DNA from: Pseudodesulfovibrio mercurii | GTDB lineage: Bacteria > Desulfobacterota > Desulfovibrionia > Desulfovibrionales > Desulfovibrionaceae | NCBI RefSeq assembly: GCF_000189295.2 | Contig: NC_016803.1 | Span: 1,440,001-1,472,000, forward strand | Length of the DNA stretch: 32,000 nt | Direction of reading: 5' to 3' | Shown: piece after piece, positions 2-23,691 of the stretch | Numbering within the stretch: the stretch's first letter is position 1 | Layout: each line of letters opens with the position of its first letter | Position numbers and translations under genes: made by a program | Notes under the pieces: model-generated | What the model was told of the DNA's origin: nothing | Databases searched by the model: none | The model's input: only the letters and a program-made list of their open reading frames with translations

Positions 2-487
2 GTTCTCGGTTCCCTGGCCTACAGCCTGCCCTTCGGGGTTCTGCCCATGCGCGCCGCCTTCGAGAAGATCGATCCCGGCATCGTGGAGGCGGCCCGCTGC
101 TCGGGCATGACCCACGTCCAGGCCTTCCGCCACGTCATCCTGCCCAACGCCATGGGCGGGGTCACAGCCTCGGCCGCGCTCATCTTCGCGCACACCGTGG
201 GCGAGTTCGGCGTGGCCCTGATGCTCGGCGGGTCCATCCCCGGCCGGACCAAGGTGGCCTCCATCGCCATCTTCGAACACACCGAGTCCCTGGAATACGG
301 CCAGGCGGGCATGCTCTCCCTGGCCCTGCTGGTCGTGAGCTACGCGACCCTGCTTTTCATCGGACGCCACGGCCTGGCCGGACGCCCCGCACCCGCAAGG
401 ACCCCGGCGGACGTCCGGTCCCGCCGCCGCGCCTTTCAAGATACCCAGAGAGGTTTCCATGCAGACCATATCCACGCAGTACGGTGA
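2..487 (+). CDS. modB: Molybdate ABC transporter permease, C-terminal part (5' end lies outside the window)
   Basis: Frame 2 is open from the window edge; VLGSLAYSLPFGVLP precedes the first Met at 47. RAAFEKIDPGIVEAARCSGMTHVQAFRHVILPNAMGG...AHTVGEFGVALMLGGSIPGRTKV is the EAA loop and last TM helices of ModB/CysT-type permeases. An Arg/Pro-rich tail precedes the stop. Confidence 0.75.
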   Translation, partial: VLGSLAYSLPFGVLPMRAAFEKIDPGIVEAARCSGMTHVQAFRHVILPNAMGGVTASAALIFAHTVGEFGVALMLGGSIPGRTKVASIAIFEHTESLEYGQAGMLSLALLVVSYATLLFIGRHGLAGRPAPARTPADVRSRRRAFQDTQRGFHADHIHAVR

Positions 488-1313
488 ACTGATCCCCCAA
501 CACACCTCCGACGACTTACGCAAACGGGACATCCTGCCTGTGGAGTACCACGCCTCGGGAGTGGTCAAGTCCGTGCCCCTGGAGGAGCAGACCGTCATCG
601 TCACCCCGATCGGCGACATCCCCGCCGAGCTGGTCTCCTTCCACGAGAACGGCACCCTGAACCGCGTCTTTCCGCTGAACGGCAAGCTCTCGGGCTACTG
701 GAGCCAGGACGACGAGGCCGGGCTGTCCAGGCCCGTGACCCTGGCCACGCCCTTCGGCCCGATCCGCACCCGGATCATGAGCGTGGGGTTCTACGACGAC
801 CGCAGCCTGCGCAGCCTGACCCTGTGGCCGGGCGAGACCCTGTCCGTGCCCACCCCGGCCGGACCCATGGAGGCGCGCGTCGGTGTGAGCTTCACCCGGG
901 ACGGCCGGGTACGATCCCTGGAACCGGCCAAACCCACCGTCGTGCCCACCCGGGCGGGCGAGATGACCGCCTTCGATCCCGACGCCGTGGGCGTGAACGG
1001 AGACGTCAATTCCCTGGTCTTCGACGATGAGGGGAAGGTCTGCCGGGTGATCACCACCCTGACCAAGTTGACCGTGGTCCACCCGGACGGGCACACCGTG
1101 TGCCACGTCCCGGAACACCGGGAGAGCCTGTGCAGCGAGGCCGAACAGGAGGTGGTGCCCATGTGCGTGGAGTTCGACAGCGAGACGGTGCGCATCCGGA
1201 CCAACCCGGACAATGCGCCCCTGGTCCTGCCCGTGGAGGGACACGTCTTCTTCGCCGAGCCCTACCTGCCGCAGCTGGCCAATCCCTTCGTGGAGCTGCA
1301 CTGCTCCATCTAG
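459..1313 (+). CDS. Hypothetical protein built from about six degenerate 35-45 aa repeats
   Basis: The ATG is preceded by AGAGAGG and the ORF overlaps the modB tail by 29 nt. Repeats include VSFHENGTLNRV, VGFYDDRSLRSL, VSFTRDGRVRSL, LVFDDEGKVCRV and VEFDSETVRIRT. I recognise no catalytic motif. Confidence 0.6.
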   Translation: MQTISTQYGELIPQHTSDDLRKRDILPVEYHASGVVKSVPLEEQTVIVTPIGDIPAELVSFHENGTLNRVFPLNGKLSGYWSQDDEAGLSRPVTLATPFGPIRTRIMSVGFYDDRSLRSLTLWPGETLSVPTPAGPMEARVGVSFTRDGRVRSLEPAKPTVVPTRAGEMTAFDPDAVGVNGDVNSLVFDDEGKVCRVITTLTKLTVVHPDGHTVCHVPEHRESLCSEAEQEVVPMCVEFDSETVRIRTNPDNAPLVLPVEGHVFFAEPYLPQLANPFVELHCSI

Positions 1314-1317
1314 GCGG

Positions 1318-2382
1318 CTATTCCAGGCCCTGCTGCATCATGAACCGGAACACGGTCTCCACGAACTTGCCGGAGACCACGTCCGCCAGGGCGAAGTGCG
1401 GCATGTCGCCGGTCACCATGGCCCCGGTGTAGGCGAACCAGATTTCCGCCGAGATCTTGCCCAGGGCGGGGGTGATCAGCGTGCCCCACAGCCCTCCCGC
1501 GTCGCTCTGGTCCAGGCCGAAGGCGCGGCACTGGATGGGCCGGTGCTCGAAAAGCCGGCACTTGCCGTCGTCGAGCAGGGGGCAGACCGAGCCGGACTCG
1601 GACAGGCAGTACTCCCCGTCCTCCCCGTCGCCCAGGTCGCGGACCGCCCTGCGCTCGGCCTGGGCTGCGGCCACGGCCCGCTCAATGACCTTGAGGCGCT
1701 CCTCGCCGGACAGCTTCTGGTTGATGCGGTGGGAGATGTACACGGCCTCGGCCAGGGTCAGGGAGACCGGGGTGGTGCAGCACTGGCTGTGATCCAGGCC
1801 GCAGGCCAGGCCGTTGACCGCCTGGCCGCTCTCATCCACCCGCTGGACCAGCTCCATGTAATCGTTGAAGAAGGGCGACAGGTCCACCAGCCGCTTGAAT
1901 TCCAGGGACGGCTCGCGCACGGTCAGCTGGCCGGACTGCTTGCCGTACTTGCGGATGGTCCGCCACTGGACGAAGTTGGCGGGCTTGCTCTTGAGCTTCT
2001 TGAGGGCCTTCCCCGCGAGCTTGTGGCCCAGGCCGCGCCGCAGGAGATAGGCGTTAAGCACCGTGCCGGTCCGGCCGATGCCGTGGCGGCAGTGGATGAG
2101 CACCTTCTTGCCCAGGTAGATGGCCTCGTCGAGCCACTCCAGGGTCTTTTCCAGCTCGATCAGGCCCGGCGCCTCCTCGTCCTCCAGCGGCAGGTAGCGG
2201 ACCTCGAAGCCCGCGCCCTTCTCGATGTCGTGCAGGTCGCAGAACTCGCCGCACAGGTTGAGGATGGCGTCCACGCCCTGGGCGCGGATGGCCTCCAGTT
2301 GGGGATAGCTCATGGGCGCGCTGCCCACGCCGAGCTGGTCCGTGACCCAAGTGACCTTGTAGGCGAGATCGGTATCAGCCAT
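1318..2382 (-). CDS. Dual-specificity (Cys-based) protein/substrate phosphatase fused to a CxxCxxCC (YkgJ/UPF0153-type) putative Zn/Fe-binding domain
   Basis: P-loop VLIHCRHGIGRTG (HCxxGxxR) with an upstream acidic loop LPLEDEEAP. The C-terminal half has ACGLDHSQCC and CPLLDDGKCRLFEHRPIQCRAF, typical of the YkgJ family. The start overlaps the upstream stop (ATGGCTGA). Confidence 0.8.
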   Translation of the reverse strand: MADTDLAYKVTWVTDQLGVGSAPMSYPQLEAIRAQGVDAILNLCGEFCDLHDIEKGAGFEVRYLPLEDEEAPGLIELEKTLEWLDEAIYLGKKVLIHCRHGIGRTGTVLNAYLLRRGLGHKLAGKALKKLKSKPANFVQWRTIRKYGKQSGQLTVREPSLEFKRLVDLSPFFNDYMELVQRVDESGQAVNGLACGLDHSQCCTTPVSLTLAEAVYISHRINQKLSGEERLKVIERAVAAAQAERRAVRDLGDGEDGEYCLSESGSVCPLLDDGKCRLFEHRPIQCRAFGLDQSDAGGLWGTLITPALGKISAEIWFAYTGAMVTGDMPHFALADVVSGKFVETVFRFMMQQGLE

Positions 2383-4828
2383 CGCGCGACTCCGCGTCCC
2401 CGATGAACCGCTCGACCTCGGCGTCCACCTGTTCCTCGCTGTCCAGGCGCATGTCCATGAGCCGGGTCACGGCCATGAGGTAGCCCAGCCGCATGAGCAG
2501 TCGCCGGATGTCGTTCTCGGGCAGCCGGGCGCACTTGGCGTCGATCATGTCGCCCCGCGTGGCCGTCTCGAACCCGTAGCGGTCCAGGACCCGGCGGATG
2601 AACTCCAGCCGCAGGAGGCGCTGGTCGAAGCCCGCGCCGCCCCCCTTGAAGCGGAAATTGATGTAGTTGGCCCCCTGTTCCGGCCCGCAGATGGCATCCA
2701 CCACCGAGAAATGGTAGCCGAAGCGGACCATCAGATGCAGGTAGTCCGTGGAGATCAGCCCGTAGCTGGCCAGCAGCTTGGAATCGAAGCTGAAGATGCC
2801 GCCCGAGACCTTGTCGAACTCCTCCCAGTCCATGGCCGTCAGCCGCGAGGGCCACTGGACGCGCTCGTCGGACAGCCCGTACCAAAGGGCCCACATGGGA
2901 CCGCACTTGATGTCCTGGGGCGAGACGGTCTTGCCCTCGCCCGCGTTGGCGAAGAAGCCGCCGCCCAGGTCCAGGACGTACATGACCAGGGGCAGGCTGG
3001 TCTCCAGCCGCTTGGCCGAGTGCATGCCCCGCCCCTTCTTGTCCATGACGGCGAACATCTCGTTGACCGACTTCTCGTGGCAGAAGCGGACCACGTCGTG
3101 CAGGGACTTGCAGCCCATGGGGGTGAAGTCCTCGTCCTGAGGATCTGTCAGGTTCAGACGCACGGTCAGGGGCGCGACCTTGGCGTACTGGGCGATAACC
3201 CGCTCCGAGACCTGGCGGCCCTCCCGCGCGCGGGTCATGATCGCTTCCACGCAGCCGTCGTAGACGGCCCCGCCCGTGCCGTCCACGGTGACCAGCTGGC
3301 CGGGCTCGAGCCGGGCCTTGATGTCGCCGACCACCACGGGCACGCCCGATTCGCGGGCCACCGAGGCGAAATGGCTGGCCCGGCTGCCCGTGGCCGAGAT
3401 GACCCCGTTCATCCGGCCGATGAAGGTCAGCAGCGACGGCTTGAGGCTCGGGGTGACGACCACGGCCCCCTCGGGAATCTGGGCGATGCGCTCGCCCGTG
3501 GAGGCGAAATACACGGTGCCGCAGCCCGCGCCCGTGGAGGCGCGCTCCAACCCCTCGGCGATGGGACGCGTGGACACGGGCAGGGGGGCGTGCCCGGCCT
3601 GGGCCTCCTCGCGCTCCTCCTGGAGCGGGCGGGTCTGGAGGATGTACAGCTCGCCGGTGACGTCCTCGGCCCACTCGATGTCCTGGGGCCGCCCGAAGGC
3701 CTCCTCCAACCGCATGGCCAGCCGGCCCAGGCGGACCAGGGACGCCTCCGAGGGCAGGCCGCCCGCGTCCGGGGTGCAGCTCGTGTCCAGGCGCGGGGTC
3801 TCGTGGCGGGTCAGCACGGCCTTGTCCGGCGAGGTGGACCCGTCCACCAGGCCGTGGCCCAGGCCGTGCACGCCGTAAACGCCCATGGCCTCGCCCCCCC
3901 GGCAGTCCGGGTCGCGGGAGTAGAGCACTCCCGCGGTGTCCGCATCGACCATGGGGATGACCAGCACGGCCATGGCCGTCTCGCTGTCGGTCAGCCCGTT
4001 GGAGATGCGGTAGGCCACGGCGCGGGGGCAGTACTTGCCCGCCAGGACGCGTTTGTAGGCTTCGAGCACGTCGTTGGGCTGGACGTTCAGCTCCGAGGCG
4101 TACTGCCCGGCGAAGGATATCTCGCCGTCCTCGGCCAGGGCGCTGGAACGGACCGCGATGAGGTCGTCGCCGTCGATGATCTCCGAGACCCCGAAGCGGA
4201 TGCCCCGGGCGATCTCCTCCGGGACCTCGGCGGCCAGGATGAGCTCCTGCATCTCGGCGGTCAGCCGGGCCAGCAGGTCGCGGTCGCCCACGACCATCTG
4301 CCGCAGCCGCTTTTCGATCTCCTCGCCCAGGCCGTTGAAGTCGATGAAGTAGTTGAAGGCGTTGGCCGTGACCACGAAGCCGGGCGGCACCGGGATGCCC
4401 TCCAGGCTCTTGGCCCGCCCCAGGTTGGAGGCCTTGCCGCCCGCAAGCCTGGGCAGGGCGCCGGCCTCCTCCAGGGAGAGGATGTACGGCGGGCCCACCT
4501 CGGGCTGCTCCAGCTCGAGCGCCATGCGCACGTAGAAGTCGATCTTGCGGAAGTACTCGGGCAGGTCCATGTACCGGGTCGGGTTCATCTCCACCAGCTG
4601 TCCGGCCATGGTGGCCACGGCCGCGGACAAGCGGTTGGTCATCCAGACCGCGCGCTGGCGATCGGCCAGCCGCTTGCCGTAGAACATCTCCTCCAGGTCG
4701 GCGATCAGTTCCAGGGCCACGGCGTCGTGGGCAAGCAGGGACTTGAAGGCCTCGTACTTGCGCCGGAGCAGGGTGCCCGGAGCGAATACCTGGTAGGTCC
4801 AGTGCCTGAAGAGCTGTTTGAGATACAT
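2375..4828 (-). CDS. PEP/pyruvate-binding-domain dikinase family protein (PPDK_N ATP-grasp domain plus phospho-His swivel domain), substrate unknown
   Basis: LAGGKASNLGRAKSLEGIPVPPGFVVT, IAVRSSALAEDG and DIEWAEDVTGELYILQTRP mark the nucleotide-binding domain. GVISATGSRASHFASVARESGVPVVVG is the mobile domain with the catalytic His. About 120 aa at the N terminus and about 290 aa at the C terminus are unassigned. Confidence 0.85.
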   Translation of the reverse strand: MYLKQLFRHWTYQVFAPGTLLRRKYEAFKSLLAHDAVALELIADLEEMFYGKRLADRQRAVWMTNRLSAAVATMAGQLVEMNPTRYMDLPEYFRKIDFYVRMALELEQPEVGPPYILSLEEAGALPRLAGGKASNLGRAKSLEGIPVPPGFVVTANAFNYFIDFNGLGEEIEKRLRQMVVGDRDLLARLTAEMQELILAAEVPEEIARGIRFGVSEIIDGDDLIAVRSSALAEDGEISFAGQYASELNVQPNDVLEAYKRVLAGKYCPRAVAYRISNGLTDSETAMAVLVIPMVDADTAGVLYSRDPDCRGGEAMGVYGVHGLGHGLVDGSTSPDKAVLTRHETPRLDTSCTPDAGGLPSEASLVRLGRLAMRLEEAFGRPQDIEWAEDVTGELYILQTRPLQEEREEAQAGHAPLPVSTRPIAEGLERASTGAGCGTVYFASTGERIAQIPEGAVVVTPSLKPSLLTFIGRMNGVISATGSRASHFASVARESGVPVVVGDIKARLEPGQLVTVDGTGGAVYDGCVEAIMTRAREGRQVSERVIAQYAKVAPLTVRLNLTDPQDEDFTPMGCKSLHDVVRFCHEKSVNEMFAVMDKKGRGMHSAKRLETSLPLVMYVLDLGGGFFANAGEGKTVSPQDIKCGPMWALWYGLSDERVQWPSRLTAMDWEEFDKVSGGIFSFDSKLLASYGLISTDYLHLMVRFGYHFSVVDAICGPEQGANYINFRFKGGGAGFDQRLLRLEFIRRVLDRYGFETATRGDMIDAKCARLPENDIRRLLMRLGYLMAVTRLMDMRLDSEEQVDAEVERFIGDAESRDG

Positions 4829-4863
4829 GGATCGTCCTTGGCTGTACGGTGTGATTCGCGCCG

Positions 4864-5229
4864 CTATTCCCCGTCTCCGAGGACCTCGGCCACCTTGGCC
4901 TCCAGCTCCTCCTTGTTGATGGGCTTGACGCAGTATTCCTGGGCCCCGAGCCGCAGGGACTCGCGGGCGGTCTCCAGGGTGGGATAGCCGGTCAGCATGA
5001 TGGCCTTCATGTCCGGGTTGACCTTCTTGAGTTCCTCCAGGGCCTCCACCCCGGTCATCTTCTTGAGCTTGATGTCGAGGATGGCCAAGTCGATGGCCGT
5101 GGACGCCGCGTGCTTCAGGGCGTCCTCCTCCTCGGTGAAGTTCCAGACCTTGTGGCCCTTGCGCTCCAGGATGCGCTTGACCAGCATCCCGGCGTCGGAG
5201 ATATCGTCCAGTACCAATATATTCGCCAT
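4864..5229 (-). CDS. Stand-alone CheY-like response regulator receiver (no output domain)
   Basis: 121 aa. NILVLDD acidic pocket, phospho-acceptor context DLAILDIKL, then IMLTGY and CVKP (conserved T and K positions). Confidence 0.9.
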   Translation of the reverse strand: MANILVLDDISDAGMLVKRILERKGHKVWNFTEEEDALKHAASTAIDLAILDIKLKKMTGVEALEELKKVNPDMKAIMLTGYPTLETARESLRLGAQEYCVKPINKEELEAKVAEVLGDGE

Positions 5230-5232
5230 GAC

Positions 5233-7299
5233 CTACTCCTTTTCGGTCTCCCCGCTGTCCGGACCCTCGTGGTCCAGCGGGAGGTTCACTTCAAAAACCG
5301 TTCCGCCGCCCTCGGCCCCGCCCCGCGCCTGGGGGGGGAAGCCGAAGTCCTCGGGGACAGGGCTGGCGGCGTGGATATCGCCGCCGTGGTCCTCGATGAT
5401 CCCGAAGGAGACGGACAGCCCCAGACCGGTACCCTTGTCCACCGCCTTGGTGCTGAAGAACGGGTCGAAAATCTTCTTGAGCGCCTCCTCGGCGATGCCC
5501 GAGCCGTTGTCGGCCACCCACAGGGAGACGATGCCGCCCGGCGTGTCCAGCCGGGTGCGGATGAGGATGGTCCCGCCCTGGCCGCCCATGGCGTCGCGCG
5601 AGTTGGTCAGCAGGTTGATCCAGACCTGCTTGAGCTTCTCGGGGTCGCCGTAGATGATCGGGTAGCGGTCGTCGAGCTGGGTGACGATCTCCACCTTGTC
5701 GAGCTCCAGGGTGTGGCGCACCAGGGAGACCGCCTCCATGACCGAGTTGTTGAAGCACATCTCGCGCTTGGCGGACTGGGTCTGGCGGGAGAAGCCGAGC
5801 AGGTCGGCCACGATCTTCTTGCAGACCTGGGTCTGCTTCTCGATGATGGCCAGGTCCTGGTGGATCTGGCTGCCCGCCTCCACGTCCTCCTGCAACAGCT
5901 GGGCGTATCCCAGGATGATGCCGAGCGGGGTGTTGATCTCGTGGGCCACGCCGCCCGCGAGCAGCCCCAGTGACTCCATCTTCTGGGCCTGGATGAGCTG
6001 GTTCTCGTAGCGCTTGATGTCCGAGATGTCGCGGTCGGTCCGCAACAGGCCGTCGATGCGCCCCTCGTCGTTGAAGACCGGCACGCAGACCACGTGGAAC
6101 CAGTGCTCGCCGCCGCCGGTCTCGACCATGAGCTGGGTGTCCAGCCGCCGCCCGGACTGGAGGATGTCGCGGGCCGCCATGTGGCGCTTTTCGGCCTCGG
6201 CCTCGGGAAAGAGGTCGAAGTCGGTCTTGCCCTCGATCTCGGCCAGGGACATGCCCACGGACTCGGCGAAGCTCTTGTTGCACCCCCGGTAGCGCATGGT
6301 CGCGTCCACCAGGGAGACGCGGTCCGGGGAGACGTCCAGGATGGTCCGGGTCAGCCGCTGCTGGTCGCGCAGATTGCGCTCGGCGTCGCGCAGCTCCCCG
6401 ATGTGGCTCTTGAGGGTCATGGCCATGACGTCGAAGGTCTCGGCCAGGTCCTGAATCTCGTCGCCCGCGTTCTCGCGGTAGACCGGGCAATGGCGGCAGG
6501 ACTGCAGGCGGCACTGGAAGTTGCCCTCGTTGTTGCAGTCCGGGCACATGGTCCCGGCAATGTACCAGCAGCGCCGCCGGGTCTCGCCGTAGGCCGGGCA
6601 CTGGGGGGTGTTGCACTGCTGCTTCTCCCAGCAGTGGACGCCCCAGGTGGGGCCGGAAATGGTGTCCAGGTTGCCGGTCAGCATGTCCTCGGCGTGGGAG
6701 CGCAGCAGGGCCAGCCGGGCGGTCACGCGCCGGGCGAAGACCGTGCCGAGCGACGTGGCCAGGAACAGGGCCCCGGCGAACAGTCCGGCCATGAGGGTCA
6801 GCTGGCGCTGCACGGCCATCTGGATGCGCGACTGGGACAGGCCGATGCGCACGGTCCCGAGCCGCCCGTCCGAGACCAGGACCGGGGCCGCGAAGTCGTA
6901 GATGCGCCGCGAGCCGTCGGCCAGGAGCTGGATGTTCAGGGACTTGCCCGTGGCCACCTTGTTGGCGTCGATGAGGTCCACCGGGAACCCCTTCTGGAAG
7001 GTGTGGACCATGACGTAGCCGCTCTTGTCCTGGACAAAGGCGTAGATGACGTCCTCCACCGTGGACTGCTCGTCGACCATGTTCTTGAGCCGCAGGAAGT
7101 CGCGGGCGAGCATGGGGTCCACGGCGCGCACGGACAGCCCCTCGGCCAGGGCCGAGCCGCGCTTCTTGCTCTCCTCCACCAGGGAACTGGCGCTCATGCT
7201 GCCGACGAGCGGCAGGAGCAGCACGGCCATGCCCACCAGGATGGCGGACATGCCCAGGTTGAGCTTGGTGCGGAATCTGAGGCGGGGAAAGAAGCGCAT
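5233..7299 (-). CDS. Sensor histidine kinase: TM - extracytoplasmic domain - TM - HAMP with a 9-Cys insert - PAS - HisKA - HATPase
   Basis: Hydrophobic segments at aa 17-35 and 167-188. H-box GVAHEINTPL. N/G boxes NLLTNSRDAM, DNGSGI and GTGLGLS. Cys-rich segment at aa 223-271. Confidence 0.9.
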   Translation of the reverse strand: MRFFPRLRFRTKLNLGMSAILVGMAVLLLPLVGSMSASSLVEESKKRGSALAEGLSVRAVDPMLARDFLRLKNMVDEQSTVEDVIYAFVQDKSGYVMVHTFQKGFPVDLIDANKVATGKSLNIQLLADGSRRIYDFAAPVLVSDGRLGTVRIGLSQSRIQMAVQRQLTLMAGLFAGALFLATSLGTVFARRVTARLALLRSHAEDMLTGNLDTISGPTWGVHCWEKQQCNTPQCPAYGETRRRCWYIAGTMCPDCNNEGNFQCRLQSCRHCPVYRENAGDEIQDLAETFDVMAMTLKSHIGELRDAERNLRDQQRLTRTILDVSPDRVSLVDATMRYRGCNKSFAESVGMSLAEIEGKTDFDLFPEAEAEKRHMAARDILQSGRRLDTQLMVETGGGEHWFHVVCVPVFNDEGRIDGLLRTDRDISDIKRYENQLIQAQKMESLGLLAGGVAHEINTPLGIILGYAQLLQEDVEAGSQIHQDLAIIEKQTQVCKKIVADLLGFSRQTQSAKREMCFNNSVMEAVSLVRHTLELDKVEIVTQLDDRYPIIYGDPEKLKQVWINLLTNSRDAMGGQGGTILIRTRLDTPGGIVSLWVADNGSGIAEEALKKIFDPFFSTKAVDKGTGLGLSVSFGIIEDHGGDIHAASPVPEDFGFPPQARGGAEGGGTVFEVNLPLDHEGPDSGETEKE

Positions 7300-7305
7300 G
7301 CCCGC

Positions 7306-8244
7306 CTACCGGTCCAACTCGAGTTTCTCGGCCAGTTCCCTGACCGGATCGTAGTCGGCGTCCTCCGCCGGGATGATCCCCTGCATGCCCGCGACGCTCA
7401 GGATGGCCTGGTGTTCCGGGGTCTTCGTGTCCAGGGCGAACATGGCCTTGGCCACGGCGTCCACGATGGCCGGATCGAGGCCCTTGCGGGCCGCGTAGAC
7501 CCAGCCGGGATAGGAGCGGGTCTCGGCCAGGATGCGGATGGAGCCGAGGTCGATCTTGTTCCTGACCACGTCCAGGGTGCCCTTGCGGATGGTCCCGATG
7601 TCGTACACGCCCGCGTGCACGGCCAGGACGACCTTCTCCTGCTTGCCGCCCGGGCCGGGCGCGAAGTCCACGGTCTCGAAGTCGTGCAGATGGATATGGT
7701 GGTCGATGAACAACCCCAGGGGGAAGAGATAGCCGCCCGCGGAGTTCGGGTCCACGGCGATCCAGCGCTTGCCCCGGCAGTCGGCGATGGAGTTGATGGC
7801 CGCGTTGTCCGTGCGGGCGATGATCTGCCCCCGGAAGTTCGGCTCGCCCGAGGGCTCGATGACCCGGGCAAAGGCCTGGGCCCCGGCCTTGGCCAGACGC
7901 ACGTAGACGAACGGGTTGGAATAGGAGATGTCGATCTCCCCGCGCTCGACCATCTTGACGTGCTCCTCGAAGGTGTCGGGGAATATCTGCCTCAGGGGCA
8001 GGCCGGTGGTCTTGCGCAGGTATTCGAGCAGCTGCCGGTGGCGCTGGTAGGAGATGGTGTGGGAATACTGCGGCAGGTAGGCGTAGGTGATGGCGTCCAC
8101 CATGCGCGGGGCCACCAGGTCCTCGCGCTTGGACAGGTCCACCTTGACCGGCTTCTCGTCCGAGCAGCCGGAGGCCAGGACCAGCGGAAGAAGGAGCGCG
8201 AGCAGGACGGCCCAGGTGGTCATTCGGGTTTTTTTCATGGTCAT
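7306..8244 (-). CDS. PhnD-like (phosphate/phosphonate-type) periplasmic substrate-binding lipoprotein, likely sensor partner of the downstream kinase
   Basis: Signal peptide with lipobox LVLASGC. GEIDISYSNPFVYV, FRGQIIARTDNAAINSIADCRGKRWIAVDPNSAGGYLFP match the PhnD-like SBP pattern. Its stop lies 6 nt from the kinase start. Confidence 0.8.
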   Translation of the reverse strand: MTMKKTRMTTWAVLLALLLPLVLASGCSDEKPVKVDLSKREDLVAPRMVDAITYAYLPQYSHTISYQRHRQLLEYLRKTTGLPLRQIFPDTFEEHVKMVERGEIDISYSNPFVYVRLAKAGAQAFARVIEPSGEPNFRGQIIARTDNAAINSIADCRGKRWIAVDPNSAGGYLFPLGLFIDHHIHLHDFETVDFAPGPGGKQEKVVLAVHAGVYDIGTIRKGTLDVVRNKIDLGSIRILAETRSYPGWVYAARKGLDPAIVDAVAKAMFALDTKTPEHQAILSVAGMQGIIPAEDADYDPVRELAEKLELDR

Positions 8245-8415
8245 CGTCGTCGGGTCGGTTGTCTGGGCGCCCGGGGCGCCGCGTTACGGACGTTCCCTGA
8301 AACAGTACAAAAATTCCGGCCGCATTCCAACAGTTCTTATCCCTTGGCAACATCTCTTCAAGACAGTATGTACAGTGCCGAACCACCCTGACGCCTCAAA
8401 CCAAGGAGACACCCC

Positions 8416-8928
8416 ATGGCATCCATATACACCATCCCCATGAGCCGGGCCGTGCTGGCCGCCTTTCTCGCGGTCATGGCCAGCGTGGCGGCCGTGGTGG
8501 CCTGGAGCTTCAATTCCGGCCTGACCTGGACGGCCATCTGCCTGATCGCCGTGGCCGGGCCGCTGGGCCTGTTCTACTGGTACATGCTCTACATCACGCC
8601 CAGGCGGGCCTCGGTGACCGTGTCCGACGAGGGCATCCTCCTGGCCGCGCCGCCGTTCGCCTCGGCGGTCATCCCCTGGGCCTCGGTGGAGAAGGTCTTC
8701 CCCGCCGATCTCAAGCGCGACGAATCCTTCCAGATCACCAAGACCCGCAAGTACATGTCCTTCGGCGGCTACAAGTCCGGCGTGGTCGAGGTCAAGGACG
8801 GCCGCGAGGCGGTCATCGTGGCCAACCGCAACGACGTGCTCTGCATCCGGACCGGGGAGCGGTTCTACCTCATCGGACCGGCCGACCTGTCCGGCTTCAC
8901 GGCGGCCGTGGAAAAGGTCGCCCCCTAG
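8416..8928 (+). CDS. Small membrane protein (two N-terminal TM helices plus a PH-like soluble domain), function unknown
   Basis: SD AAGGAG lies 7 nt upstream of the ATG. Two hydrophobic helices (AVLAAFLAVMASVAAVVAW, AICLIAVAGPLGLFYWYML) are followed by a roughly 100-aa beta-rich domain. Confidence 0.6.
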   Translation: MASIYTIPMSRAVLAAFLAVMASVAAVVAWSFNSGLTWTAICLIAVAGPLGLFYWYMLYITPRRASVTVSDEGILLAAPPFASAVIPWASVEKVFPADLKRDESFQITKTRKYMSFGGYKSGVVEVKDGREAVIVANRNDVLCIRTGERFYLIGPADLSGFTAAVEKVAP

Positions 8929-8955
8929 ACCGCCCGGCCTGTCATATCAAAGAAC

Positions 8956-8980
8956 AAAGCCGCCCCGAGGGGCGGCTTTT
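8956..8980. terminator. Bidirectional intrinsic terminator between convergent genes
   Basis: AAAGCCGCCCC-GA-GGGGCGGCTTTT: a perfect GC stem flanked by an A-run and a T-run. Confidence 0.75.
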
Positions 8981-8995
8981 CCATTTTCGAAATCG

Positions 8996-9655
8996 CTAGG
9001 ACCCTTCGGGGACCGGCTTGCTCTCGACGAGCGCCGGCTTGTCCTTGCCGTGCCTCTTCCGGGACTGGGCGTAGCGCAGCTTGTCCTCCTCGCTGAGCAG
9101 ATCCGTGAAGGTCAGCATCTCGTCCCCGGCCTCGTTCTCCTTGACCCGCTGCTTGATGGTCCTGAAGACCGGCAGCCAGGGCTTGGAAAGGCTGAAGAGG
9201 TAGCGGACCAGGATGTAGGCCGGAATGAAGATGAAGGCCGGGCCCACCGACCCCATGAAGGGCACGGTGAAGTCCACCTCTGCGAAGCGGTAGAAGAGCC
9301 AGCCGATGGCGAAGGGAACCACCCACAGGGACGAGGCGAACAGGGCCATGCGGGCGAAGAAATTCTTGCCGAAGGCGTCGTTGGCCAGCGAGTTGCAGGC
9401 CTTCCAGGAGGTCTTGTCCTTGGCGCCCAGGGCGTGGACCGACATGTTGTGCTGGTCGATCATCTCGCGGTTCATGGTCGCGAAATGACGCTTGTTCAGG
9501 AAATAGACCCCGGCCATGCACAACTCGCCGATGACCGTGGCCGCCAGGCAGACCCAGAACAGCCCCACCGCAAACCCCACGTAGGGGTTGTCGCTGGTGC
9601 GGAAGGCCCAGATGAGCCAGGGATCGAGGAACTGATAGACGGTGGTACCGGTCAT
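8996..9655 (-). CDS. Integral membrane protein of unknown function, downstream of the TauE/SafE gene
   Basis: 219 aa with several hydrophobic helices (VGFAVGLFWVCLAATVIGELCMAGVYF, LFASSLWVVPFAIGWLFY, GPAFIFIPAYILVRYLF) and a charged C-terminal tail. Same strand as TauE, 66 nt downstream of it. Confidence 0.6.
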   Translation of the reverse strand: MTGTTVYQFLDPWLIWAFRTSDNPYVGFAVGLFWVCLAATVIGELCMAGVYFLNKRHFATMNREMIDQHNMSVHALGAKDKTSWKACNSLANDAFGKNFFARMALFASSLWVVPFAIGWLFYRFAEVDFTVPFMGSVGPAFIFIPAYILVRYLFSLSKPWLPVFRTIKQRVKENEAGDEMLTFTDLLSEEDKLRYAQSRKRHGKDKPALVESKPVPEGS

Positions 9656-9673
9656 GGAAAATCCGTTGGTTGT

Positions 9674-9699
9674 GGCGGCCGCCCTCGGGGGCGGCCGCC
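9674..9699 (-). terminator. Intercistronic 11-bp GC hairpin (partial terminator or mRNA-stability element)
   Basis: GGCGGCCGCCC-TCGG-GGGCGGCCGCC is a perfect stem. On the minus strand it has no immediate U-tract, so it is not a canonical terminator. Confidence 0.35.
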
Positions 9700-9721
9700 G
9701 TTGTTTCGTCTTTGTGCGCCG

Positions 9722-10843
9722 TTAGATGGGCAGGGCGATCCCGAAGAAGCCCTTCAGGGTGTACTTCAGACCAACGTACACGGCCAGCACGATGAAGATG
9801 CGCTTCAGCCAGATATCCGGGATGTACTTGGAGGTCTTGGGGCCGATGATGGAGCCGATGACGATGCCGACGAGCTCGGCGCCGATCAGGGACCACTCGA
9901 CCGGAGTGGAGCGCAGGATCATGTAGGAGGCGATGGAGTTGACCATGCCGACGAAGACGGCCATGGCCGAGGTTCCGGCCACCAGGTACATGGGCAGGCC
10001 CGCCACGGAGGTCAGGAACGGCACCAGCAGGAAGCCGCCGCCGACGCCCAGGAAGGAGGCCAGGGCGGAGATGAAGAAGCCGCCGATGACCGGGATCAGG
10101 GGGTTGAAGGAGAACTCGACGCCGAAGAAGGTGAATTCGCAGGAGGTCGGGGTGAACTTCTGGACCTTCACGCCCATCTCGGCCATGTCGACGGTACCGC
10201 CGGCCTGCTGTTCCTTGACGGACTTCTGGAAGGCCTCGGCGGCCTTCTTGGCGGACTTTTTCTTCGCCTGGCCGGCCGGGGTGGTTTCATAGAAGAGGTA
10301 GCAGCCCAGGAAGAGGACGAACAGACCGAAGTAGCCGATGTAGGCCTTCAGGCTGATTTTGCCGGCGGTCAGCCAGGGCACCAGCCAGGAGCCGGACACG
10401 GAGCCGATGGCCAGGGCGATGCCCAGCGGCAGCACCAGACGGCCGGCCTTCCAGTAGTTGAAGGAGGACAGGGCCGCGGAGCAGCCGACCAGCCACTGGT
10501 TGGACACGCGGATGGAGTCGGTGACGACCTTGTTCAGCTTGGCGCCCTTGCCGAAGGAGCTGGCGTAGTCGCCCAGACCGTAGATGGTGATGTGACCGAC
10601 ACCGGCCATGATGCCGCCGAACGCGCCGACGGTGGAGAAGATCCAGCCTACCCAGATCGCCCACAGGAGACCGATGATGATGTTCAGCTGCGGACCGCCG
10701 GGAATGCCCAGATAGCCGGGCTCGCCGGTGGGTTTGGCTTCGGCGATGGCGTCGGCCAGACGGCTGGCCAGAGCGGGCTCGGCCATGAGGCAGACAGCCG
10801 CAACCAGGGCCAGCATCAGGAGAGTTTTCTTGGAACGTAACAC
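9722..10843 (-). CDS. TauE/SafE-family anion (sulfite/sulfonate-type) exporter
   Basis: Polytopic membrane protein with the two-repeat TauE/SafE pattern (GGIMAGVGHITIYGL... and GGGFLLVPFLTSVAGLP). I place the start at GTG 10843, preceded by GGAGGAGG with about 5 nt of spacing. The track's ATG at 10879 lies inside the IS element. Confidence 0.8.
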   Translation of the reverse strand: MLRSKKTLLMLALVAAVCLMAEPALASRLADAIAEAKPTGEPGYLGIPGGPQLNIIIGLLWAIWVGWIFSTVGAFGGIMAGVGHITIYGLGDYASSFGKGAKLNKVVTDSIRVSNQWLVGCSAALSSFNYWKAGRLVLPLGIALAIGSVSGSWLVPWLTAGKISLKAYIGYFGLFVLFLGCYLFYETTPAGQAKKKSAKKAAEAFQKSVKEQQAGGTVDMAEMGVKVQKFTPTSCEFTFFGVEFSFNPLIPVIGGFFISALASFLGVGGGFLLVPFLTSVAGLPMYLVAGTSAMAVFVGMVNSIASYMILRSTPVEWSLIGAELVGIVIGSIIGPKTSKYIPDIWLKRIFIVLAVYVGLKYTLKGFFGIALPI

Positions 10844-10865
10844 AGTTACCTCCTCCTCGGGAATA

Positions 10866-10873
10866 AAGTTAAA
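10866..10873. repeat. Left copy of the 8-bp target-site duplication AAGTTAAA
   Basis: Identical octamer at 13055-13062, directly abutting the IS terminal inverted repeats. Confidence 0.75.
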
Positions 10874-10951
10874 CGGCATTTTAAAAAATAATGTTGCTTT
10901 TGCCGAAAAAAGTCTAACTATTTAGTATGGACTAAAAGGAGGCAAAGCGCA

Positions 10952-11998
10952 ATGTCTATTCAGGCCGTTATCAACCAGTTCAGATCGTTGAATAAAGACC
11001 AGCAGGAAGCCTGCGCCCGCCGCATCGAAGCCTATCTCCACGAGCACATCGAGGGGTTGAAGGGGTTCAGGGATACCATCGTCGAGGCGCGTTTCGCTGA
11101 TGGCAGGCACTGCCCCAGGTGCGGAAGCGTCGATGTGAAGCGTTGGGGCGCGTACAGCGACAAGAACGCCTACATGGCCCGCCAGCGGTACATGTGCAAG
11201 GATTGCGGACGCACCTTTACCGAACTGACGGGGACGCCGATGGCGGGGACCCACAAGCCCGAGCTGTGGTCCCGCTACATCCGATGCATGATCGAGGGGT
11301 TGAGCCTTCCCCGGACCGCCAAGCGGCTCGAGATTTCCATCCCCACGGCCTTCTATTGGCGGCACAAGATCCTGTGTGGCCTGAAGGCGTTGCATGCCCG
11401 GGATATCCTGTCCGGCATCGTCGAGATGGACGAAACCTTTTTCGTCGAATCCAACAAGGGAAGCCGCAACCTGAAGCACCGTCCTCCGAGGAAGCACCGG
11501 GGCGTCGCACGGAAACGCGGTATCTCGAACGAACAAGTGGCCGTGTTGGTGGGGCTCAGCCGCGATGGTGACGTGTTAAGCCATGCCGCTGGCCGGGGGC
11601 GCTTGTCGGCCGATCAGGTCGCGCGGGCCATCGGCGGCAACATCATGCCGGACAGCACGCTTGTCACGGACTCCATGTCCGGCTTCGCCACCTACGCCAA
11701 GCGCGAGGGCATCCGGCATGTCCGCTTGAACAGCCGTCAGGGCGTGTACACCCAGGGTGTCCACCACATCCAGCACGTCAACAACTACCACGCGGGTCTC
11801 AAGGAATGGATGCGCCGGTTCTGCGGCGTGGCCTCGAAGTTCCTCGACCACTACATGGCGTGGTTCAACCTGTTGCGGATCGTGACCAAGCTGGAATCCA
11901 AGAGCAGGCTGGAGGAATTCTACCGTCAGGCTTGCCGCAAGACCGCCTATGCGCCCGTCAGGGACTTCCGGGCATTCAAGGTCGGCCAGGAGCCGTAA
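10952..11998 (+). CDS. IS1595-family (ISXO2-like DDE) transposase with an N-terminal zinc ribbon
   Basis: CPRCGS...CKDCGRTF zinc ribbon, then IVEMDETFF (first catalytic D), LVTDSMSGF, and HIQHVNNYHAGLKEWMRRF..VASKFLDHYMAWF, typical of ISXO2-like transposases. AGGAGG lies upstream. Confidence 0.9.
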   Translation: MSIQAVINQFRSLNKDQQEACARRIEAYLHEHIEGLKGFRDTIVEARFADGRHCPRCGSVDVKRWGAYSDKNAYMARQRYMCKDCGRTFTELTGTPMAGTHKPELWSRYIRCMIEGLSLPRTAKRLEISIPTAFYWRHKILCGLKALHARDILSGIVEMDETFFVESNKGSRNLKHRPPRKHRGVARKRGISNEQVAVLVGLSRDGDVLSHAAGRGRLSADQVARAIGGNIMPDSTLVTDSMSGFATYAKREGIRHVRLNSRQGVYTQGVHHIQHVNNYHAGLKEWMRRFCGVASKFLDHYMAWFNLLRIVTKLESKSRLEEFYRQACRKTAYAPVRDFRAFKVGQEP

Positions 11999-13661: not shown

Positions 13662-13679
13662 TTGTGAGATATTTCTCAA
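13662..13679. promoter_or_regulatory. Candidate CRP/FNR-family operator in the divergent FeS / Mo-enzyme intergenic region
   Basis: TTGTGA-GATATT-TCTCAA matches TTGTGA-N6-TCACAA at 11 of 12 positions. Confidence 0.3.
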
Positions 13680-13840: not shown

Positions 13841-15931
13841 ATGGGTAAGGAATATGTAAAGAGCATTTGCGGCATGTGCTCGGTACGATGTCCCATTGAG
13901 GTCGAAGTGGTCGATGGCAAGGCGGAGTATATTCAGGGCAATCCCGATGCCGCGGGCATCATGGGCTCCCTGTGTCCGCGCGGCGCTGCCGGTACGGCCC
14001 TGACCTACGACGAGGACCGCCCGCAGTACCCCATGGTGCGCACGGGCAAGCGCGGCGAAGGCAAGTGGAAACGGGTGTCCTGGGACGAAGCCCTGGACTA
14101 CGTGGCCGACGAGCTGACCCGTATCCAGGAGACCTACGGCAAGAACTCGGTCCTGTTTTCGGACCGCGGCGGCCCGTTCCGCGATTTTTACCGCGCCTTC
14201 CTGCGCGGCATCGGCACGGCCAACTACAACAACCACGACTCGGCCTGCGCGCGCAACGTCCAGAACGCGGCCCTGTCCGTGTTCGGCTTCGGCCGCAAGG
14301 GCGTGTCCTACGACCTGAAGAACGCCAAGCACGTGGTGCTCCAGCAGCGCAACATCATGGAGGCCATCAACGTGGCCGAGGTGAACAACCTGTTCACCGG
14401 CATGGAGAACGGCGCCAAGCTGTCGGTCATCGACATCCGCGCCAACGTCCCGGCCACCAAGGCGGACAATTTCTTCATGGTCCGGCCCGGCACGGACTAC
14501 GCCTTCAACCTGGCCGTCATTCATGTCCTTATAAATAACGAGCTGTACGACAAGCAGTTCGTGGCCGACTGGGTCGAGGACTTCGACAAGCTTGTGGAGT
14601 TCGTCAAGCCCTACACCCCGGAGTGGGCCGAGGCCGAGACCGGCGTGCCCGCCGCCCGGCTGATCGACTTCTGCAACCAGCTGGCCGAGGCCGCCCCGAG
14701 CGTCCTGTGGCATCCCGGCTGGATGACCGCGCGCTACACCGACTCCTTCTACATGACCCGGACCATCTACATCATCAACTCGCTGCTCGGGGCCATCGGC
14801 GCCAAGGGCGGCCTGCCGTTCATGAACAAGCCGGGCGACGTGGGTGCCAAGGGGCTGAAGAGCTTCATGGAGCTCTATCCCAAGCCCGAGGGCAAGCGCG
14901 CCGACGGCGTGGGCTGGATGGATGGCCGCAAGCACTTCGACCAGGGCCCCGGCCTGGTCCACCTGGCCTACGACGCCGCGGTGGAGAAGAAGCCCTACCC
15001 CATCAAGGCGTACATCGTGCAGCGCCACGACCCGCTCATGGCCTTCCCGGACAAGAACGACGTCAAGGCCATGTGGGACGACATCGAGCTGCTGGTCTCC
15101 GTGACCTTCTCCTGGTCCGACACCGCCTGGAACGCGGACGTGGTCCTGCCCATCTCCCCGTACCTCGAGCGGGACGAGATTCTGATGACCAAGAACGGCC
15201 CCAAGCCCGCCTTCCAGGTGCGCAAACGGGCCATTCAGCCGGTCTACGACACCAAGGCCGTGTGGGAAATCTACGCGGGCCTGGCCAAGCGCATGGGTCT
15301 CAAGGAACTCGACTACACCAACATCGAGGACATCTGGAAGTTCCAGCTCGAGGGCACCGGCGTGACCATCGAGGACTTCGAGAAGACCGGCATCGTCTCC
15401 CTGGCCTCCGATCCCCTGTACAAGCCGGTCAAGGAGGGCTCCTTCAAGACCCCGTCCGGCAAGATCCAGATCATCGACGCCAAGCTGGAAGGCGACGGCA
15501 TGCCGTCCCTCAAACCCTATGAAGCGCCCGAACGGCCCCCGGCGGGCAAGTTCCGCATCACCTTCGGCCGCTGCGCCCTGCACACCCAGGGCCACACCGT
15601 GAACAACTCCCTGCTCTTCGAGCAGATGCCCGAGAACGTCCTGTGGATCAACACCAAGCGGGCCGAGGAACTCGGCATCGCCCAGGGCGAGTACGTGACC
15701 GTGTCCAGCAACGGCTACAACGGCCGGATCAAGGCGTTCGTCACGGACTTCATCCACCCCGAGGCGGTCTTCATGATCCACGGCTTCGGCCACGACCTGC
15801 CGTGCGAGTCCCGGGCCAAGGGCCGGGGCGTCGCCGACAACCTGCTCATGCCCAAGGGCATCAAGAAGTGGGATCATGGGGGCGGAGCCGTAGCCATGCA
15901 GGAACACTTTGTCTCTGTAAGTAAGGCGTAA
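13841..15931 (+). CDS. Molybdopterin (bis-MGD) oxidoreductase catalytic subunit, Psr/Phs/acetylene-hydratase-like clade, apparently cytoplasmic
   Basis: The N terminus MGKEYVKSICGMCSVRCPI carries CxxCxxxC, with a fourth Cys in GSLCPRG. RTGKRGEGKWKRVSWDEALDYVADEL is typical of MopB enzymes. There is no twin-arginine signal. AGGAGG lies 6 nt upstream of the ATG. Confidence 0.9.
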   Translation: MGKEYVKSICGMCSVRCPIEVEVVDGKAEYIQGNPDAAGIMGSLCPRGAAGTALTYDEDRPQYPMVRTGKRGEGKWKRVSWDEALDYVADELTRIQETYGKNSVLFSDRGGPFRDFYRAFLRGIGTANYNNHDSACARNVQNAALSVFGFGRKGVSYDLKNAKHVVLQQRNIMEAINVAEVNNLFTGMENGAKLSVIDIRANVPATKADNFFMVRPGTDYAFNLAVIHVLINNELYDKQFVADWVEDFDKLVEFVKPYTPEWAEAETGVPAARLIDFCNQLAEAAPSVLWHPGWMTARYTDSFYMTRTIYIINSLLGAIGAKGGLPFMNKPGDVGAKGLKSFMELYPKPEGKRADGVGWMDGRKHFDQGPGLVHLAYDAAVEKKPYPIKAYIVQRHDPLMAFPDKNDVKAMWDDIELLVSVTFSWSDTAWNADVVLPISPYLERDEILMTKNGPKPAFQVRKRAIQPVYDTKAVWEIYAGLAKRMGLKELDYTNIEDIWKFQLEGTGVTIEDFEKTGIVSLASDPLYKPVKEGSFKTPSGKIQIIDAKLEGDGMPSLKPYEAPERPPAGKFRITFGRCALHTQGHTVNNSLLFEQMPENVLWINTKRAEELGIAQGEYVTVSSNGYNGRIKAFVTDFIHPEAVFMIHGFGHDLPCESRAKGRGVADNLLMPKGIKKWDHGGGAVAMQEHFVSVSKA

Positions 15932-20829: not shown

Positions 20830-21612
20830 GGGAAAAATCAGAAGTTGAAGCCGCTACGCGGCGATTCGGGATGACGGGGTTCGCTCCGCCCCGGCGCCCC
20901 CCCTTTGCGCGGTCGGACAGGGCCTGGTTCAATTCGTCCGGACGACGCTGCGCGTCCACCAAATCCGTCAGGCGTTCCTTCCCTGGTCCTGTCGCTGCCG
21001 CCCCCCTGGGACATGCTTCGCCGTCCCCCTTTCTCGCTCTCACCCTCGCCCGGAAGGGATGCCCTGCAAGGGCTCCCGCCCCAGCGCACCCCCTTGTCCG
21101 ATGCCGCTCCAAAACGTGGCAAAATAGCGTCTCCGAGAAGTGCCTATACGGTGATGTTATTGGCAATTCTCATGCCAAAAACAATGTCATACAATACAAA
21201 ATAAATCATTTTTTGACACGGTGAATTTATTCAGATAGACTCTGTCAATGATTACAGACGATGCAGATAAATGAACGTTGTTTTTGATCTGTAACAAAAA
21301 GATAGAGAGATAATACAGTAATAAATCAACTGTTGCAGTTGCCACAATCTGATACAAAAAATTCTTACAGCAGATTGTGACTGTATCATCGACAAAACAA
21401 CATCATCTTCGGCTAAATCGCCAATTGTACATGCCACAGACCTCGAAATGCCATAGCGGACAGAAAACCCTGTCCAGCCCCGGACTGCGCTCGTCCACCC
21501 CGTGCGGACTTCGCGACCGGGTTCCCCTCTCCTGATCCATTTCGACAGCCTTTTTTTCCGACACTCCCCGCCCCCGGCGAGGGAGCGCGTCGTTACTTTC
21601 AACGGAGCAACC

Positions 21613-23666: not shown

Positions 23667-23691
23667 CCGCAATCGAATCCGAGGAGGTTCC

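Follow-up and report, generated by a model that had tools for sequence, protein, structure and literature searches.

The DNA analysed here, hereafter the window, is a stretch of 32,000 nucleotides of Pseudodesulfovibrio mercurii ND132 (contig NC_016803.1, positions 1,440,001 to 1,472,000; positions below count from its first letter). It carries a five-gene operon in which a periplasmic binding protein, a histidine kinase and a receiver are encoded together with an atypical dikinase and a phosphatase, next to genes for an anion permease and a second membrane protein. To judge by its architecture, the operon is the ND132 copy of the "nitrate cluster" described in 2014 in other sulfate reducers. 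The operon and its upstream region, in order of transcription, comprise:

8245-8415, minus strand: intergenic region of 171 nt upstream of the first gene, presumably the operon promoter region.
7306-8244, minus strand: gene for a substrate-binding protein (SBP), a PhnD/PtxB-like periplasmic oxyanion-binding lipoprotein of 312 aa and proposed co-sensor of the kinase.
5233-7299, minus strand: gene for a membrane histidine kinase of 688 aa with sCache_3_2, a Cys-split HAMP, PAS, HisKA and HATPase_c domains.
4864-5229, minus strand: gene for the receiver, a single-domain response regulator of 121 aa.
2375-4828, minus strand: gene for the atypical dikinase of 817 aa, composed of an N-terminal helical domain, a PPDK_N ATP-grasp domain, a His-swivel domain and a family-specific C-terminal domain.
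1318-2382, minus strand: gene for a Cys-dependent dual-specificity-type phosphatase of 354 aa with a Cys-rich YkgJ/CxxCxxCC-like domain.

The open reading frame (ORF) map leaves 6 nt between the SBP and kinase genes, 3 nt between those of kinase and receiver, and 35 nt between those of receiver and dikinase, and the phosphatase start and dikinase stop share an 8-nt overlap. All these positions, gaps and the overlap reproduce exactly those given in the original prediction, a note made from the letters of the window without database searches. Its domain assignments agree with Pfam for all five proteins, the CxxCxxCC match being below threshold. The same note held that the cluster has neither an internal terminator nor a DNA-binding domain, and neither turned up: a consensus scan of minus strand 1318-8244 detects zero terminator-like hairpins and zero sigma-70-like promoters, and Pfam and NCBIfam searches find no DNA-binding domain in the five operon proteins or in the products of the three upstream genes. 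A promoter search of the 171-nt region gave nothing convincing, and no sigma-70-like site. From the layout of the sequence we infer that the five genes form a single transcription unit. The operon is genuine and conserved, and it contains no transcription factor.

The first three genes encode the sensing front end. The SBP belongs to the Phosphonate-bd family (PF12974, E-value 3e-61), scores under the cut-off of PhnD and of every other NCBIfam model, and has PtxB, PhnD, HtxB and ArrX (E-value 2.4e-10 for ArrX) as nearest PDB entries; its lipobox is ASGC, with Cys27. Pfam matches of the kinase are sCache_3_2, a partial HAMP, PAS_4, HisKA (E-value 1.9e-13) and HATPase_c (E-value 2.6e-21), and its phospho-acceptor is His453. 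Kinase residues 223-271 contain nine cysteines in the pattern CWE..C....CPAYG...RRCW...C..C......C....C..CPVY, an insert that splits HAMP, is covered by no Pfam model and resembles a module that senses metal or redox state within the HAMP linker. Its distribution was followed in a scan of species-representative genomes, which gave 80 loci (designated L below) whose ORFs were called and searched with the window proteins; the insert is kept in L002, L003, L008, L010, L036 and L051, and L004 and L009 show a clean deletion of it. The receiver is highly conserved among orthologous loci. It matches Response_reg alone (PF00072, E-value 1.5e-23), has no second domain by Pfam over its 121 residues, and retains an intact phospho-acceptor pocket (D8, D9, D52, T80, K102).

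The H-box kinase with HATPase_c and the receiver with its D-D-D-T-K pocket are shared with classical two-component systems, from which the window differs by a receiver without a DNA-binding or other fused output domain. A PhnD-fold periplasmic binding protein encoded beside a membrane kinase is also found in the AioXSR and ArrXSR systems, and the AioX and ArrX proteins, which work with kinases, are the model for the step from SBP to kinase proposed below. However, those systems end in the sigma-54-dependent DNA-binding regulators AioR and ArrR, whereas the regulator of the window is receiver-only and is followed by enzymes; in the Pfam search, none of the cluster proteins matches Sigma54_activat or an HTH domain.

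The dikinase matches PPDK_N (PF01326, E-value 1.7e-68) and PEP-utilizers (PF00391, E-value 6.8e-16). A helical N-terminal domain (approximately residues 1-125) is found at one end, the His domain (451-520) is central and 260-300 residues follow it, including an alpha/beta C-terminal domain (approximately 560-817). With PEP synthase (PpsA), PPDK and rifampin phosphotransferase (RPH) the protein shares the ATP-grasp domain and the swivelling phospho-His domain, in which the catalytic residue, His486, is kept; it is at least 95% conserved in the 69 homologues (26-60% identity) over which conservation was computed. These two domains and the conserved His486 imply a chemistry that converts ATP to AMP through a phospho-His intermediate. 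The database names "pyruvate, water dikinase" and "PEP/pyruvate-binding domain-containing protein", and the fact that PpsA, RPH and PPDK are the best PDB and Foldseek matches, would suit an ordinary gluconeogenic PpsA or a rifampin-type phosphotransferase that sits beside signalling genes by chance. Such an identity is extremely improbable. The PEP-utilizers_C TIM barrel (PF02896) is absent by Pfam, and the scores miss the curated NCBIfam cut-offs by a factor of 2 to 5 (PEP_synth, TIGR01418, 251 against 739.75 bits; PRK06464, 266 against 598; RPH, 177.7 against 999). PDB sequence alignments to PpsA span the ATP-grasp and swivel domains and end at about residue 565. Foldseek searches with a full-length model (pLDDT 80.7) likewise match PpsA, RPH and PPDK through the first two catalytic domains only, the model revealing the additional N-terminal helical domain. 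The acceptor domain of these enzymes is thus replaced in the window by a family-specific alpha/beta domain, with the helical domain added in front, and the central position of the His domain contrasts with the RPH order of ATP-grasp, rifampin-binding and C-terminal His domains. Moreover, the receiver, kinase and TauE synteny described below is not seen at ordinary PPDK_N loci. Domain content and curated cut-offs together led us to reject PpsA or RPH identity, which is effectively refuted; the ordinary PEP synthase, which the original prediction had listed among the outcomes that would refute it, is set aside with it.

The C-terminal domain is the distinctive part of the protein. It has no Pfam match, and a Foldseek search of the PDB with its AlphaFold2 model (pLDDT 75) gives no hit at an E-value of 0.001 or less (best E-value 0.013, TM-score 0.21). 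An exhaustive HMMER search with this domain collects 1,105 clusters at 50% identity, 883 of them at E-values of 1e-10 or less, and full-length relatives, which are about 800-870 aa long, have the domain at approximately residues 550-830. A constellation of polar and glycine residues (H577, D578, R581, H584, H706, G729, G730, R740 and D792) is at least 95% conserved. Because this polar set persists across 69 diverse sequences, it suggests a catalytic acceptor site and not a mere docking surface.

The phosphatase matches DSPc (E-value 1.8e-12) and Tc-R-P (E-value 7.6e-18) in Pfam, and weakly CxxCxxCC (E-value 6.7e-4, 20.7 bits against a cut-off of 23 bits). Its P-loop HCRHGIGRTG, with Cys98, and its Asp68 correspond to the HCx5R(S/T) motif and general-acid Asp of Cys-based dual-specificity phosphatases (DSP) and protein tyrosine phosphatases (PTP). 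Both are near-invariant in nine orthologues, the exceptions being HCRFGIGRTG in L005 and an Asn at the Asp68 position in L009; the Cys-rich C-terminal pattern is well conserved among orthologous loci. The nearest solved relatives are small archaeal-type PTP/DSPs. Dikinase and phosphatase genes are adjacent or overlapping wherever both are present, and the two enzymes are one polypeptide in proteins P0405 and P0452, which upholds their earlier pairing as functional partners. The combination of a His-swivel dikinase with a DSP is the same enzyme chemistry as that of reversible glucan phosphorylation in plants, where a GWD-like kinase is opposed by a SEX4/laforin-like DSP. It is nevertheless very improbable that the pair is a bacterial analogue of that system: Pfam finds no carbohydrate-binding module (CBM20/45/48) in either enzyme, the domain order is unlike that of GWD, glycogen genes are unlinked, and the constant neighbours are a permease and two-component proteins.

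The order SBP, kinase, receiver, dikinase, phosphatase recurs in Desulfobacula (L002), Desulfovibrionaceae (L003, L004), Halodesulfovibrio (L036) and Desulfovibrionales (L051), and the same five genes are found in L081-L083 by independent gene calls with precomputed Pfam annotation. L009 keeps the order with no SBP gene seen, and L010 has it permuted. The dikinases of the five-gene loci are 36-60% identical to that of the window. The five genes are therefore one conserved module, beyond what chance would produce, as originally proposed. TauE and membrane protein genes precede them in L003, L036 and L051. Linkage was counted at the 32 loci of the dikinase family with at least 3 kb on both flanks, TauE being scored within 6 kb of the dikinase gene. 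TauE is a neighbour at 22 of the 32, a receiver-only gene at 21, a kinase gene at 22, and either TauE or a receiver at 29. At seven comparable control loci, encoding ordinary PPDK_N proteins without the C-terminal domain, TauE, receiver-only and kinase genes each score 0/7. Among the signalling neighbours of the dikinase family, the receiver-only protein is the most frequent across phyla, in keeping with the coupling of receiver and dikinase module that had been predicted.

Distant dikinases occur in Acidobacteriota, Nitrospirota, Zixibacteria, Latescibacterota, Chloroflexota, Myxococcota and Desulfobulbia. They have no phosphatase, the tie to this enzyme being restricted to one clade of the family; usually they lie beside a histidine kinase gene and one or more receiver-only genes, often as two or three tandem paralogues. 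Loci L013, L021, L025, L035, L053, L056 and L059 have two or three tandem dikinases accompanied by a single kinase gene and one or two receiver-only genes, a layout that resembles multi-kinase signalling networks. The Desulfobulbia-type order is kinase, receiver, TauE, 230-aa membrane protein, dikinase, receiver. In these loci (L016 5797-7825, L023 5829-7834, L048 5863-7856, and others) a 440-aa TauE is always followed by the 230-aa protein, which has no Pfam match. In L068 (Acidobacteriota) and L052 (Anaeromyxobacteraceae) an Alph_Pro_TM segment (PF09608) is fused to the N-terminus of the dikinase, directly after TauE.

The original prediction saw in the enzyme pair the only output of the operon. 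This view has to be amended, since a TauE/TSUP permease gene and a membrane partner gene sit immediately upstream, at 8996-10879. The features of this region are:

9722-10879, minus strand: gene for a TauE/SafE (TSUP) anion permease of 385 aa (PF01925, E-value 3.6e-25), by architecture the counterpart of DVU0251/Dde_0598.
8996-9655, minus strand: gene DND132_1309 for TM219, a multi-pass membrane protein of 219 aa, by position the counterpart of DVU0250/Dde_0600.
8956-8979, no strand assigned: bidirectional terminator-like hairpin with a 10-bp stem (7 GC pairs), between the stop codons of the TM219 and bPH genes.
8416-8928, plus strand: gene for a bPH_5 membrane protein of 170 aa (PF10882, E-value 3.8e-9), between the permease pair and the operon.

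TM219, which like the phosphatase is 100% identical to a protein of P. mercurii ND132 (in its case a hypothetical protein), has no Pfam match, and a search with its sequence reached close relatives only. Homologues follow TauE in L003, L036 and L051, and the 230-aa Desulfobulbia protein occupies the same position. Neither phmmer nor Pfam detects homology of TM219 to that protein or to Alph_Pro_TM, so that its role as a TauE partner is positional only. L051 shares the bPH insertion, which L003 and L036 lack. An IS1595/ISXO2-like transposase gene (DDE_Tnp_IS1595, zinc ribbon; 10952-11998, plus strand) begins about 70 nt past the TauE start codon and could, in this strain, have an effect on the promoter region of TauE. 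Comparative genomics and published genetics make the permease and its partner the likely physiological end-point.

The genetics comes from the nitrate cluster of Desulfovibrio vulgaris Hildenborough (DVU0251-0245) and D. alaskensis G20 (Dde_0597-0605) (Korte 2014, PMC4001038). Its genes code for a TauE-like permease, a conserved hypothetical protein, a PtxB-like SBP, a HAMP/PAS kinase, a receiver-only protein, a PPDK-type protein with a mobile domain and a DSP phosphatase (PMC4001038). Over seven genes, gene order and domain content are identical to those of window 1318-10879, in the same bacterial family. Protein sizes, given for dikinase, phosphatase, receiver, membrane protein and permease, are similar, namely 744/369/119/195/320 aa in the nitrate cluster against 817/354/121/219/385 aa in the window. 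The window differs by the inserted bPH gene and terminator, G20 by an extra DUF169 gene, and D. vulgaris by a kinase pseudogene. The original prediction knew of no characterised system with such an architecture; the 2014 description supplies one, with mutant phenotypes, and limits the novelty of the finding. The cluster is known from genetics only, through these phenotypes and no biochemistry. Literature searches found no paper that names DND132_130x or DND132_1310, no biochemical study of the dikinase or phosphatase, and no mention of the cluster genes in Price 2014 or Trotter 2023.

In pooled fitness assays, mutations in the nitrate cluster are among the strongest determinants of nitrate resistance (PMC4001038). 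Transposon mutants of DVU0251 (TauE), DVU0250, DVU0247 (receiver) and DVU0246 (dikinase) grow equally with and without 100 mM nitrate, and the mutant of DVU0245 (phosphatase) is still inhibited by nitrate, with a fitness of -6.04 (PMC4001038). G20 mutants are mildly sick on thiosulfate, and the authors proposed that nitrate enters through a leaky, non-specific thiosulfate transporter (PMC4001038), a view repeated in PMC9723548. In Dissulfuribacter thermophilus, proteomics of thiosulfate disproportionation shows a rise of the products of the adjacent genes for a "PEP synthase" (DITHS69_1988), a TauE-associated transmembrane protein (1989) and TauE (1990) (PMC13490349); the order of DITHS69_1988-1990 is that of the Desulfobulbia-type loci.

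We favour, with about an even chance of being right, the hypothesis that the module controls the anion permease by phosphorylation and not by transcription, in five steps. The PhnD-like lipoprotein would bind an oxyanion in the periplasm (thiosulfate or another sulfur oxyanion being the most plausible candidate) and signal to the Cache domain of the kinase. The kinase would then phosphorylate Asp52 of the receiver, as the intact motifs and adjacent genes of the two proteins suggest, and the receiver would bind and gate the dikinase, to which it is linked across phyla. The dikinase would load His486 from ATP, as do all PPDK_N/His-swivel enzymes, and its C-terminal domain would pass the phosphoryl group to the hydroxyl of an acceptor at the membrane, which could be the TauE/TSUP permease, the partner protein or a bound ligand; transport would thereby be turned on. 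The Cys98 phosphatase would finally strip the phosphate, and its Cys-rich domain may add a redox or metal input. An antagonistic enzyme pair fits because the D. vulgaris dikinase and phosphatase mutants have opposite phenotypes; a shared substrate and a membrane location fit because dikinase-phosphatase and Alph_Pro_TM-dikinase fusions exist.

In principle, control by the nitrogen phosphotransferase system (PTS) and EIIA, and by single-domain response regulators that bind enzymes, follows the same logic: a phospho-His enzyme or a receiver-only protein governs a transporter or enzyme post-translationally. An example is a single-domain response regulator that activates a phosphoglycosyl transferase (PMC12802240). 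Unlike in the nitrogen-PTS, the phospho-His of the window would be loaded from ATP by an ATP-grasp domain and not from PEP, there is no HPr/NPr or EIIA, and a dedicated Cys-phosphatase is present.

Receivers catalyse their own Asp phosphorylation from histidine kinases, Hpt domains or phospho-imidazole donors. The dikinase could then be a non-canonical phosphodonor, in which His486~P passes its phosphoryl group to receiver Asp52, the phosphorylated receiver acts on the permease or another partner, and the Cys-phosphatase resets dikinase or receiver. Several layouts agree with such a scheme, since distant dikinases are typically paired with a receiver-only gene of their own (DIK-REC, DIK-REC-DIK and HK-REC-TauE-TM-DIK-REC, for dikinase, receiver, histidine kinase and transmembrane protein), and L021, L030 and L063 have dikinase and receiver genes with no kinase gene nearby. 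In D. vulgaris, the mutant of the kinase pseudogene is little affected, and receiver and dikinase mutants are nitrate-resistant (PMC4001038). The earlier proposal of a relay through a CheY-like protein to the enzyme pair is sustained as regards linkage; its direction from receiver to dikinase is assumed and could also be the reverse. We nevertheless judge the phosphodonor role unlikely. A hydroxyl acceptor is a better fit to the DSP-type partner and to a C-terminal domain that is conserved and apparently catalytic, and no precedent is known to us for transfer from the swivel His of a PEP-utiliser to a receiver Asp. Fusions of receiver and dikinase (REC-PPDK), recorded in a response-regulator census (PMC5847659) and possibly unrelated to the present dikinase family, follow the usual logic of a receiver that regulates an enzyme. 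The remark in this census is all that a literature search for dikinase and receiver systems returned.

One subfamily of dikinases (L014, L019, L022, L054, L060 and protein P0496) is extended at the C-terminus by about 220 aa. The extension matches the ConA/LamG-like lectin models Laminin_G_3 and Glyco_hydro_59_C in L022 and P0496, with a weak additional match to 3keto-disac_hyd in L022; in L014 it has no Pfam match. The lectin-type extension suggests a different targeting of the same catalytic core. A ligand-binding domain of ConA/LamG type on some members would also fit an enzyme pair that acted on a small molecule, such as the solute of the permease (by trapping or a process like group translocation), a lipid or a sugar hydroxyl, with the two-component system setting the flux. 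To our knowledge, all characterised PPDK_N/His-swivel enzymes phosphorylate hydroxyls of small molecules or polymers, namely pyruvate enol, rifampin, glucan and a prodigiosin precursor; this established chemistry, together with the family matches of the dikinase, and the invariant polar residues of the C-terminal domain, common to subfamilies with quite different neighbours, are compatible with such an acceptor. Yet a constitutive kinase and phosphatase acting on a metabolite would run a futile cycle, the dikinase family shows no consistent linkage to any metabolic enzyme, and sulfur oxyanions give no stable phosphomonoester product. We therefore regard a small-molecule acceptor as quite improbable.

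Several observations weigh against the proposed phosphorylation of the permease complex. The kinase of D. vulgaris is annotated as a pseudogene, yet its receiver and dikinase matter (PMC4001038), so a chain from kinase through receiver to dikinase fits poorly in this organism. The mutant of the G20 phosphatase homologue has a positive fitness, +2.08, and transposon polarity was uncontrolled in the published mutant work (PMC4001038). The match of the window genes to the DVU and Dde genes is judged by architecture alone. The permease pair forms a transcription unit of its own in the window, set apart from the operon by the bPH gene and a terminator, and the five-gene loci L004 and L081-L083 have no TauE within 8-9 kb. 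At its five L loci, the lectin-type subfamily lacks TauE, receiver and kinase neighbours alike, which means that the permease cannot serve as acceptor throughout the family. A Sulf_transp gene (YeeE/YedE-type, thiosulfate-transporter family) lies at 20233-20454 in L081/L082, relatives at 50% identity, about 9 kb downstream of the operon; it may be a coincidence or an alternative permease partner.

Beyond control of the permease by phosphorylation, it is conceivable, and we advance it only tentatively, that the dikinase is the first member of a class of signalling kinases hitherto unrecognised in bacteria. Such enzymes would transfer a phosphoryl group from a swivelling phospho-His to a protein hydroxyl of the TSUP complex or to a receiver, opposed by a Cys-phosphatase with a metal or Fe-S domain.

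Other features of the window touch the operon less directly. Since Rex mutants also have a nitrate-resistance phenotype, we mention a Rex-box-like palindrome, TTGTGAGATATTTCTCAA, at 13662-13679 (plus strand), with 2 mismatches to TTGTGAANNNNTTCACAA. The gene that follows about 160 nt downstream (13841-15931) encodes a molybdopterin oxidoreductase. The palindrome is far from the operon and not above chance in a shuffle test (0.48 expected); Rex control was dropped. A role in anti-phage defence was dropped as well, the PADLOC scan for defence-system components giving only a marginal generic receiver match (E-value 5e-4). At the left edge of the window, 47-487 (plus strand) encodes the C-terminal part of an ABC permease, ModB/CysT-like by the look of its sequence, and 459-1313 (plus strand), convergent with the phosphatase gene, a 284-aa protein with zero Pfam or NCBIfam matches. 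A glycine-betaine-type ABC transporter (ABC_tran with CBS, BPD_transp_1 and OpuAC; 21502-24720, plus strand) and the large sigma-54 activator that adjoins it (25151-27670, minus strand) are ordinary and unrelated to the operon.

The cluster governs the response of sulfate reducers to nitrate, an industrial agent against oil-field souring, and probably also the uptake of thiosulfate-type oxyanions. Its mechanism has been unexplained since 2014, and the present analysis narrows the question to a dikinase that is not PpsA and has a conserved and apparently catalytic C-terminal domain, evolutionarily tied to TauE/TSUP permeases, to receiver-only regulators and, in one clade, to a DSP phosphatase. 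Should the enzyme pair phosphorylate the permease complex or the receiver, bacteria would have a signalling kinase of a new type and a new way of controlling transporters, and a function would be assigned to the widespread TauE and Alph_Pro_TM gene pairs. If the dikinase does define a class of signalling kinases, anaerobic phyla would possess, in about a thousand protein clusters, a transcription-independent switch of anion transport linked to two-component systems.

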